The notes beneath the pieces were generated by a model, which saw only the letters and a list, made by a program, of their open reading frames with translations, did not search any database and was not told the origin of the DNA. DNA of 63,116 nt, the filler included, from Rhabdomonas costata (taxonomy: Eukaryota): assembly GCA_019059605.1 (NCBI GenBank). It is 38 parts of 38 records of this genome, joined end to end, with 100 filler letters (N's around TTAATTAATTAA, not from the genome) between each part and the next. Parts side by side here need not be neighbours in the genome. Positions count along the whole stretch, not along the records: positions 33,286 to 34,848 come from JAHMHO010012995.1; 37 more parts are not named here. One strand, given 5' to 3'. A program made the translations under genes and the position numbers. This document shows positions 33,061 to 35,314 of this stretch, in pieces (the first letter of the stretch is position 1; each line of letters opens with the position of its first letter).

Positions 33061-33804
33061 GACCAACTGTGGAGGAGCGGTCTCACAAATGATGGTCGCG
33101 TGACGACCATGAGATTTACTTGAGGACGAAACTGTGAATGGAGCAGCCAACTCCGAGTTTTTTGCAAGAGAAGTCCACAACCACANNNNNNNNNNNNNNN
33201 NNNNNNNNNNNNNNNNNNNNNNNNNNNNNTTAATTAATTAANNNNNNNNNNNNNNNNNNNNNNNNNNNNNNNNNNNNNNNNNNNNGTTACAGAACGACAC
33301 AACAAGCAGTGGTCATAAGTGGCCCAAGCCCCTTCTGTTTTTTAAGCAAACGCGAAGCATGCAGGGGCATCACCCTCGCCTCAGCACTGTTTGGTTGTGG
33401 TCCGATTTCTAAGCAAACTCTTCCCTTCTTTATAAGAGCATCCTTGTATGGCTTAGCCCAGCATCCCACAACAAGCGAGGGGAGGGGACACCTCACATCC
33501 CCAGCTTTGCTCGCTCAAGCGGTTTACCAAAGATCTCGTAAGAAAGAAAAGAAACGGTCCGAGACTTGAAAACATCGTTGTAGACCTTTTCAACGAAACA
33601 AAGAGCCGTCAACTGCGCTATCCGATGCCCAATTAAAGAATAACGTAAGCGAAACGCTGAGTCCTGTTGCGGTGTTCGATTGTTAGCGGATCGCCCAAAG
33701 TACAGAGGAAAAATGTGCAACGGAGAGAGATCTTCGGATGTCACGGGATGTCACATCCTCCCAAAGTTATTCTGCAGCAAAATGGCGCGTCGCATCCCCT
33801 CCTC

Positions 33805-34398
33805 TCAACTGGCCTGCTTGGCGGACTCCTCCGGAAGAACCTCCACGCGGCCCCGGCCCGTCATCGTGGCCAGAGCAATGGTGGCGTGAATCCGGCAGGA
33901 CGTGCCGTTGAGCCGAAAGGGTTCCCCGACAAAGGTGAGGGTGTCCTCGGTGAGAGTATAGCTCTCCTTCTTCAGAGCGGAGTTCAGGCTGGTCACCCCC
34001 TTCCCTGGACGGGACTGTCCCGACCACGATAAGAACGAGCAAAATGGAAACTCGCAGTTCTTAAAAATGAGATGGAAAACCAGACCCGGACAGAGAGTGG
34101 ATATGAATTCACATTTTGAAACAATGAGTGGATGAGACCTCCTTGTGGTGGCACACGCAATTGCAAAGCAAAAAGATAGGAAACAGGAAGTAAATGAAAC
34201 AAGATTCACAGCCGGAAGTCAAGTGGGGAGGGGGAGCGCTTTTATTCTGACCTCAAAGTCCACAAAGCAGTGGCTCGTCTCGCGGACGTGCCTTCGGAGG
34301 TCCTCAGGGTCGGGCTCAGTGGTGCCGCGCTTGTAGTACGGCGCACGGATGTCCTGTTCGGCGGACAACCGCTGCACAAGCTCATCCACGTGGGCCAT
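33805..34398 (-). CDS. Complete two-exon gene, 118 aa, CBF-beta-fold-like protein
   Basis: ATG at 34398; exon 1 34398-34252; GT-AG phase-0 intron 34251-34015; exon 2 34014-33805 ending in TGA. Protein: MAHVDELVQRLSAEQDIRAPYYKRGTTEPDPEDLRRHVRETSHCFVDFESRPGKGVTSLNSALKKESYTLTEDTLTFVGEPFRLNGTSCRIHATIALATMTGRGRVEVLPEESAKQAS. The fold call rests on a by-eye comparison with a recalled CBF-beta sequence. Confidence 0.75.
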
Positions 34399-35314
34399 TG
34401 TTGTGCGCGTGCTTTGAAGCCCTCTGCTTGGGAGCTCCGCAGCTACAGCAGCAGGAACCCCCCGGACGCACAGTCTTTCTTTGCGTAAAACAGATACGTG
34501 GACAGGGCGTGCAGTCACAAGATGCTGATTATCGCAAGGATGAGGAAAAGGTTGAAATCAACGTAAATGGTGAGCAGGAGCTCACAGTCAAACGCCGGGG
34601 TTGGTTTTGGTGGGAAGGCGACCAACAAGACCAGAATGTCCAATATTGACTCCTTGCAAAACGAGAGGAACGGCAATCCTGAAACAAGAGCTGATAGTAG
34701 GATGGTTTGGAAACAATTTGATGTGAAAACTCCCACTTCAAAAAAAAAGCAATTTACTTTCATCCATGGAAGCATCAGGCTCAGACAACTCACATCTTCC
34801 AAAAATCGTACGCAACAGCAACAATGCAGCGTTACGTAAACACAACCCNNNNNNNNNNNNNNNNNNNNNNNNNNNNNNNNNNNNNNNNNNNNTTAATTAA
34901 TTAANNNNNNNNNNNNNNNNNNNNNNNNNNNNNNNNNNNNNNNNNNNNAAAGGTGCAAAATTTCATTTGTGAACATAGTAAGTCAGAATGTCCCACCATG
35001 GCGTCAGCAAGTGCGACTGATCACAGGTTCCACCGCCTTCGGCGGGGTCCCGATAAGTGAAAACTCTCTAAAAACCGCCCGAGCCCAGCTCCAACCAGCT
35101 CCAACATTATTTTCCCTCGGGATTAACTGGGACGTTTGCGATTCGGTCTGCCGGAACTCTGCACACACACTTAATTTTACGGTTGCTGTGTTTTTTGTCT
35201 AAATGCAGGGTATACTTCAGGATGAATGGATGAAGGGGACTCTTCAATGCGGAGATTTCCCAAGTTTGCACAAATACTGATCGTGACTGCAGTGCGGCGC
35301 TGGAGGGCATACAT

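Follow-up and report, generated by a model that had tools for sequence, protein, structure and literature searches.

Does a eukaryotic lineage other than the animals possess its own CBF-beta, and if so, where are its nearest relatives and what might it bind? This question is raised by a small gene on the minus strand of a 63,116-nt stretch of DNA from Rhabdomonas costata (assembly GCA_019059605.1; the whole stretch is called the window here), which an earlier note, made from the sequence alone, had read as a complete intron-containing gene for a CBF-beta-like protein in a protist. CBF-beta, a much-studied human protein, does not bind DNA itself but clamps the Runt domain of its RUNX partner; it is also known from the leukaemia fusion CBFB-MYH11, is hijacked by the human immunodeficiency virus protein Vif, and is usually taken to have arisen with the animals. 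To our knowledge, the Euglenozoa are a phylum without any known Runx or Runt-domain partner. Our analysis indicates, with a probability of roughly 0.7, that this is a real nuclear, intron-bearing euglenozoan gene of the CBF-beta superfamily, that its nearest relatives outside the phylum are the MbtH-linked CBF_beta proteins of bacteria, and that its product would act as a clamp subunit. On this reading a standalone copy has been kept, strongly conserved, in a second eukaryotic lineage, the Euglenozoa, the origin of CBF-beta becomes testable by phylogeny and partner hunting, and a conserved, putative binding face can be indicated. In practical terms, a so far nameless euglenozoan family gains the annotation "CBF-beta-fold protein".

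The gene consists of the following parts.

34252-34398, minus strand: exon 1, coding, 147 nt, ATG (34398-34396) plus 48 codons (from translation and orthologue alignment)
34015-34251, minus strand: intron, phase 0, GT..AG, 237 nt, starting with GTCAGA and ending with GACAG (from sequence reading)
33805-34014, minus strand: exon 2, coding, 210 nt, 69 codons plus TGA (33807-33805) (from translation, Pfam and orthologue match)

The spliced coding sequence of 357 nt yields a protein of 118 amino acids, and both the sequence reading and the translations agree with the intact 118-residue, two-exon gene, with its ATG, phase-0 GT-AG intron and TGA, that had been proposed. Exon 1 encodes an N-terminal helix (DELVQRLS), an APY motif and a second helix, and exon 2 the beta-sheet core of the predicted CBF-beta-like fold. 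Without splicing, the exon-1 frame meets a stop 10 codons into the intron (open reading frame 34219..34557), and no ATG lies upstream of 34398 in this frame. The base composition fits the exon-intron model as well, the GC content being 63.3% in the exons (79.8% at third codon positions) versus 44.7% in the intron. At the junction, the window protein (..FVDFE followed by SRPGKG..) runs continuously against ..FVNFESRPGQG.. of P0003, a 113-residue protein from a Euglena gracilis transcript, and ten further related proteins, making 11 orthologous proteins in total, are likewise aligned without a gap across it. The exact junction is supported because these transcript-derived orthologues are gap-free at this position; by this comparative evidence for the splice, the two-exon gene model is confirmed as real. 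Three further sequences (P0007, P0009 and P0017) are prokaryote-style open reading frame calls on 1.3-5.5 kb genomic contigs of euglenid orthologues; each is identical to P0003 or P0011 over 24-31 residues and then diverges, and two of these exact runs cross the position of the window's exon junction. They look like single exons read into flanking introns or non-coding sequence, so that related euglenids appear to carry introns elsewhere in the gene and not to share the intron seen in the window.

The gene belongs to a well-defined euglenozoan family. In a search of 5.8 billion proteins, exon 2 alone matched P0003 at E 7.7e-17 with 70% identity, a match that can be regarded as far beyond chance. 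With P0003 as the query, a HMMER (phmmer) pass over 1.84 billion representative proteins returned only six proteins at E<=0.001, and the euglenozoan profile returned 15 at E<=10 from the 5.8 billion. The spliced window protein shows 50-66% identity to 11 full-length euglenozoan proteins. All named eukaryotic sources of the relatives are Euglenozoa, namely the euglenids Euglena gracilis, E. longa, Ploeotia vitrea and Chasmostoma nieuportense, the diplonemids Namystynia karyoxenos, Sulcionema specki and Flectonema neradi, and the prokinetoplastid Papus ankaliazontas, which bears out the assignment of the gene to a protist. Two family members are carried on long contigs, of 3.8 Mb and 829 kb. An alignment of 11 euglenozoan members contains 28 invariant columns, a conservation that, judged from the alignment, is high given the distance between these lineages. 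The window protein carries the signature of the family, i.e., a standalone protein of about 105-118 amino acids with the blocks APY, H.F..FE, PG.G.T.LNS, LNG and TM.G.G. The family has no Pfam or NCBIfam assignment, and an NCBIfam scan of six of its proteins gave nothing meaningful. This distribution fits a single presence in the euglenozoan ancestor; neither the 1.84-billion HMMER pass nor the 5.8-billion profile search returned a trypanosomatid member, which hints at gene loss or divergence in that group.

Outside the phylum, the relatives are bacterial. The euglenozoan profile matched P0016, a 188-residue MbtH fusion, at E 1.4e-4. The N-terminus of this protein is MbtH (PF03621, 70.4 bits), and its C-terminus scores 23.3 bits with CBF_beta (PF02312), slightly below the Pfam gathering cut-off of 25 bits. 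When the C-terminal part was used as a query, 36 proteins were returned, mostly MbtH fusions of 186-208 amino acids together with some standalone proteins of 106-124 amino acids, three of the 36 carrying a precomputed PF02312 label. Overall, the bacterial forms are either standalone proteins (about 105-125 amino acids) adjoining MbtH or MbtH-CBF_beta fusions. Bacterial proteins of this kind are already labelled in databases with Pfam CBF_beta and the automatic name "Core binding factor beta subunit domain-containing protein". The nearest clusters in the ESM Atlas are also bacterial and MbtH- or CBF_beta-named, at a recognition value (1892) that lies below the trust line and makes them a lead only. 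Two comparisons connect these proteins with the euglenozoan family. First, hhalign aligned the euglenozoan sequences (11) with the bacterial standalone sequences (6) at a probability of 98.7%, E 3.3e-16, over 95 columns. Second, the spliced window protein scored 31.4 bits (E 7e-12, Z=1) against a bacteria-only hidden Markov model across residues 5-115. From these comparisons, the homology of the euglenozoan family to the bacterial CBF_beta domain is firm.

The genomic surroundings of the bacterial domain were surveyed with a prokaryote scan using one genome per species, in which 173 of the 180 pattern matches were confirmed and 80 loci were returned, from Cyanobacteriota, Acidobacteriota, Nitrospirota, Chloroflexota, Actinomycetota, Pseudomonadota, Gemmatimonadota and Bacteroidota. 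An MbtH motif was found upstream and in frame at 30 of the 80 loci and anywhere in the locus at 53, while an adenylation-domain motif was present at 43 and accompanied by a second motif of nonribosomal peptide synthetases (NRPS) at 41; these counts were made without a background control, on loci many of which are truncated. Pfam confirmed the MbtH/NRPS context in both loci examined. In locus L004 (Capilliphycus salinus), a 71-residue MbtH comes after a 112-residue CBF_beta protein (29.8 bits), which is itself preceded by an aminotransferase, a methyltransferase and a CmlA_N/TubC_N/reductase protein. In locus L009 (a Gemmatimonadota metagenome-assembled genome), a 195-residue MbtH + CBF_beta fusion (28.2 bits) sits between an adenylation-thiolation-thioesterase (A-T-TE) gene and two condensation-adenylation-thiolation (C-A-T) genes. 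Because the scores in L004 and L009 exceed the cut-off of 25 bits, the bacterial domain is, by Pfam's own measure, CBF_beta; all six standalone bacterial members of the bacteria-only alignment (A3) also match this family at E<=0.01. The statement in the earlier note that similar small bacterial proteins are linked to MbtH/NRPS loci is thus supported by the P0016 fusion, by the motif counts over the 80 loci and by the Pfam results for L004 and L009. Bacteria harbour a large reservoir of the CBF-beta fold, linked to MbtH and NRPS clusters and apparently undescribed: our literature search, the scope of which left out supplements and most subscription journals, returned no paper on a bacterial MbtH/NRPS-linked CBF_beta domain, nor any linking CBF-beta or Runt to Euglenozoa. 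For natural-product biochemists, the bacterial CBF_beta domain represents an unstudied accessory domain of NRPS systems.

Several other features of these bacterial loci were observed. In L004:3807-10605, NRPS C-A-T motifs come first, followed by a fusion of a CmlA-type diiron beta-hydroxylase with a TubC docking domain and a reductase; then come, in this order, a methyltransferase, a class-III aminotransferase, a 112-residue open reading frame without a family, CBF_beta and MbtH. The loci L002-L008 are ordered like L004. CBF_beta precedes MbtH in the L004-type clusters, whereas MbtH comes first in the fusions. The region L009:1923-17062 looks like a siderophore-type cluster, with a TonB-dependent receptor, a substrate-binding protein and parts of an ABC transporter near the fusion. 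The 188-residue MbtH fusions (P0016 and P0018-P0040), which are the best bacterial match of the euglenozoan profile, come from metagenomes only, none being found among the 80 species-genome loci.

The euglenozoan and bacterial proteins are homologous over the full domain, their standalone forms are of equal length, and the invariant columns F, G, T, L, G, L, G and G are common to both. They differ in several ways: no euglenozoan protein is fused to MbtH, and the euglenozoan proteins possess an APY/GKPDPEDL block of their own and carry a 2-residue insert (P-G) ahead of the G-x-T motif; in addition, the euglenozoan group is separate and long-stemmed, and the window gene has an intron. The 118-residue protein contains no MbtH part, and no MbtH gene adjoins it within its 1563-base contig. 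MbtH-like proteins (PF03621) themselves, which are the fusion or neighbour partners of the bacterial relatives, offer a functional analogy only: they have no sequence or fold relation to the window protein, in which no MbtH motif is present.

To place the euglenozoan proteins relative to the bacterial ones, a tree of 113 domain rows was built with a quick method after 15 near-duplicate metagenomic fusions had been dropped from 128 rows. All 12 euglenozoan rows, including that of the window, fell on one side of a branch with a Shimodaira-Hasegawa-like approximate likelihood ratio (SH-aLRT) support of 100 and a long stem, and no euglenozoan row was found among the bacterial rows of this tree. 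Since the tree is unrooted, comes with a long-branch warning and contains no animal sequences, a bacterial donor is not demonstrable from it; the suggestion that this is a domesticated bacterial gene is a reasonable but tentative idea. The earlier note had further stated that CBF-beta is generally treated as animal-restricted. This agrees with Sullivan et al. 2008, according to which neither Runx nor CBF-beta was present in the unicellular protozoan genomes searched (PMC2527000), but not with the Pfam CBF_beta label that bacterial proteins already bear.

Given these bacterial relatives, it has to be considered whether the contig itself comes from a bacterial or other contaminant or from a mis-assembly. 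The window is a chain of separate contigs, N44-TTAATTAATTAA-N44 linkers being spaced about every 1663 bases along its 63,116 nt, which corresponds to about 38 contigs of about 1.56 kb each, and the genomic context of the gene is therefore limited to its own contig.

33286-34848: the gene's own contig, 1563 bases, bounded by N44-TTAATTAATTAA-N44 linkers
33186-33285 and 34849-34948: the linkers flanking this contig, N44 + TTAATTAATTAA + N44, an all-frame stop spacer

The CBF-beta-like gene is the sole gene on these 1563 bases, with nothing else that could place the contig; its small size and the bacterial nature of the nearest non-euglenozoan relatives are what a contaminant would have in its favour. 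Against this stand the GT..AG intron with its sharp drop in GC content and broken unspliced frame, the 57-66% identity of the protein to sequences from the transcriptomes of eight named euglenozoan species versus at most about 35% to bacterial ones, and the grouping of the window row with the Euglenozoa at SH-aLRT 100. Contamination or mis-assembly thus has a close to negligible probability, and the earlier argument that the intron speaks against bacterial contamination stands, the eukaryotic rows being also separated in the tree from every bacterial one.

How, then, does the nuclear euglenozoan gene relate to animal CBF-beta? In Pfam, CBF_beta was the sole match of exon 2, at 11.7 bits and E 0.21, far under the cut-off. 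The same family was matched by seven of the nine full-length orthologues (12.6-16.5 bits, E 0.0069-0.11) and was the top match in six of these seven. With a joint profile of euglenozoan and bacterial sequences (A2), the 13 best matches among 177,635 PDB sequences were 13 distinct CBF-beta sequences (E 0.002-0.0065), and the bacteria-only profile A3 reached CBF-beta in the PDB at E 3.9e-4. In the A2 alignment, profile positions 8-113 pair collinearly with CBF-beta residues 14-128 over about 105 positions. The same three blocks that had been matched by eye, collinearly, with human CBF-beta are paired in this HMMER alignment. Homology to accepted members of the CBF-beta superfamily is thus reached at the profile level, through the bacterial proteins and through the match of the joint profile to solved CBF-beta.

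The predicted structure points in the same direction. An AlphaFold2 model was calculated from a 32-row, mostly bacterial alignment with the Chasmostoma protein P0010 (64% identical to the window protein) as the first row, and had a mean predicted local distance difference test score (pLDDT) of 90.6 and a predicted template modelling score of 0.78. When this model was compared with the PDB using Foldseek, ranks to 39 among the matches listed were all CBF-beta chains, with a best E of 3.9e-5, template modelling (TM) scores of 0.71-0.73, a root-mean-square deviation (rmsd) of about 3.1 Å and 20-23% identity; the first other fold, a lipocalin at rank 40, had a probability of 0.14 and a TM score of 0.20. 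VIA-align against 48,161 representative chains gave 1e50_B at Z 12.5 (rmsd 2.4 Å, 105 of 111 residues) and 4n9f_a at Z 9.5, followed by a VirK protein as the next fold at Z 5.4. As far as prediction can settle it, the domain adopts the CBF-beta pseudo-barrel fold across its whole length. A single-sequence AlphaFold2 model of P0003, with a pLDDT of 37, was unusable. Taken together, the sole Pfam match, the PDB matches of the A2 profile and the structure match of the orthologue model are in line with the proposed CBF-beta-like nature of the protein; the structural check suggested in the earlier note, AlphaFold followed by Foldseek, did return CBF-beta when applied to the orthologue.

Several observations weigh against this assignment. 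The Pfam gathering cut-off was reached neither by exon 2 nor by any matching orthologue (11.7-16.5 bits versus 25); exon 1, P0010, P0012 and the partial sequences P0006, P0008 and P0017 gave no Pfam CBF_beta match, and the top rank for P0014 was another family. No CBF-beta was among the PDB sequences matched at E<=10 by the profile built from Euglenozoa only (A1), and single-sequence PDB searches with exon 1, exon 2 and P0003 found none either, so that the direct sequence link between the euglenozoan proteins and animal CBF-beta is weak. As to the model, the protein folded in silico was a 64%-identical orthologue, its alignment was dominated by bacterial CBF_beta members, and AlphaFold2 had been trained on CBF-beta structures. 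The PDB matches that the A1 profile did give (PorA N-domain, annexin and PHO4) were at chance level (E 0.18-0.87) and were rejected.

It could be argued from these points that the resemblance to CBF-beta is a convergence or a predictor artefact and that the protein is an unrelated small beta-barrel; the identity to CBF-beta is only 20-23%, the euglenozoan proteins alone stay below significance against it, and the predictor knew the fold. However, profiles that contain no structural information ranked CBF-beta as the 13 best of 177,635 PDB sequences (E 0.002, and 3.9e-4 with the bacterial profile), bacterial members exceed Pfam's curated CBF_beta cut-off, and 105 of 111 residues were matched at 7 Z units over the next fold. 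We therefore regard convergence or artefact as very unlikely. Within the CBF-beta superfamily, the euglenozoan family forms a divergent, intron-bearing branch of standalone proteins, which current Pfam thresholds miss.

Compared with animal CBF-beta (CBFB; PF02312; PDB 1E50, 1H9D and 4N9F), the window protein is likewise small, single-domain and without catalytic motifs, aligns collinearly at the profile level and shares the G-x-T-x-L, L-N-G and G-x-G segments. It differs in its low identity and in its score, like that of its orthologues, below the Pfam cut-off. With 118 amino acids it is also shorter, lacking 4- and 8-residue inserts present in CBF-beta in the HMMER alignment, and its aligned domain ends near residue 113, leaving a short tail only.

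Which part of the protein might make contact with a partner? Conservation was counted by column in 128 rows (12 euglenozoan and 116 bacterial). In the numbering of the window protein, F48, G55, T57, L59, G79, L84, G102 and G104 are invariant or nearly so, and two of the conserved segments have counterparts in CBF-beta.

33979-33999, minus strand: motif GVTSLNS, residues 55-61 (from column counts and HMMER alignment)
33904-33912, minus strand: motif LNG, residues 84-86 (from column counts and HMMER alignment)

In the HMMER alignment, T57 and L59 pair with T62 and L64 of the CBF-beta stretch G61-L64, G55 lies opposite a two-residue CBF-beta gap just ahead of G61, and L84-N85-G86 pairs with L103-N104-G105. 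Position 85 is Asn in all 12 euglenozoan rows and either Asn (49) or Asp (67) in the 116 bacterial rows. According to two studies, CBF-beta with the substitution N104A still folds but no longer binds RUNX (PMC10866659, PMC13121600).

Going beyond the gene model, the family, the bacterial homology and the fold, we infer a binding function, a binding face and the kind of partner. The window protein lacks catalytic motifs, and CBF_beta is the only family it matches. By analogy with CBF-beta and MbtH, it would be a small non-catalytic subunit that clamps a partner and thereby stabilises or activates it; MbtH-like proteins, small and without enzymatic activity, act by binding and activating adenylation domains. 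Binding would putatively occur via a face comprising the G-x-T-x-L and L-N-G segments, the counterparts of G61-L64 and L103-N104 of CBF-beta. The conserved Gly residues may, on the other hand, serve to form turns in the structure and not to bind a partner, which would count against such a face. The domain begins right where the protein begins, which leaves no space for a targeting extension at the N-terminus, and this suggests a cytosolic or nuclear location.

Two kinds of partner come to mind from the known relatives. One would be an enzyme of the adenylate-forming or NRPS type, whether or not an MbtH-like protein takes part, in which case the window protein would be an accessory subunit of a secondary-metabolite or amino-acid-activating machinery. 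The bacterial relatives are tied to MbtH/NRPS genes, as described above for the 80 loci and for L004 and L009, and NRPS-like genes are known from Euglena transcriptomes. Yet all 12 euglenozoan proteins are standalone and have no MbtH part, the long stem and the family's own invariant motifs (APY, PG.GVTSLNS) suggest a changed partner, and the conservation of the family in phagotrophic, phototrophic and parasitic lineages would favour a housekeeping partner over one from secondary metabolism. The window, which comprises only about 38 unrelated short contigs, also contains no MbtH or NRPS motif. An NRPS-type partner is thus on the whole unlikely, though it deserves consideration.

The other would be a genuine Runx/CBF-type heterodimer, in which the window protein is the beta subunit of a so far unnoticed euglenozoan protein with a Runt domain or a Runt-like Ig fold. 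The shared fold speaks for it, as does the invariant Asn in Euglenozoa at the position equivalent to N104, a residue critical for binding to RUNX (PMC10866659). This Asn does not imply a Runt partner, because bacteria, in which the domain serves with MbtH/NRPS, keep Asn or Asp at the same position. Moreover, the unicellular protozoan genomes searched by Sullivan et al. 2008 had neither Runx nor CBF-beta (PMC2527000), and our literature search found nothing that pairs a Runt domain with Euglenozoa. The partner is thus probably not a Runt-domain protein, and we consider a Runx/CBF-type heterodimer highly improbable. If the partner is neither an NRPS-type enzyme nor Runt-like, it would be a euglenozoan-specific protein.

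A wider scenario can be sketched, speculative and with the odds clearly against it, in which CBF-beta is not an animal invention but one branch of an old family of small clamp subunits, which arose in bacteria as MbtH-linked accessory proteins of peptide synthetases and was taken up by eukaryotes at least twice. One uptake would have been in the animal line, where the protein came to serve Runx, and another in the euglenozoan ancestor, where it would have become an indispensable, highly conserved subunit of a lineage-specific partner, bound through a face of the N104 type.

Elsewhere in the window, a 375-codon open frame on another contig (58665-59792, minus strand) encodes an RNI-type leucine-rich-repeat protein, matching Pfam LRR_6 with 167 bits; for nine further long open frames, Pfam returned no family at E<=0.001.

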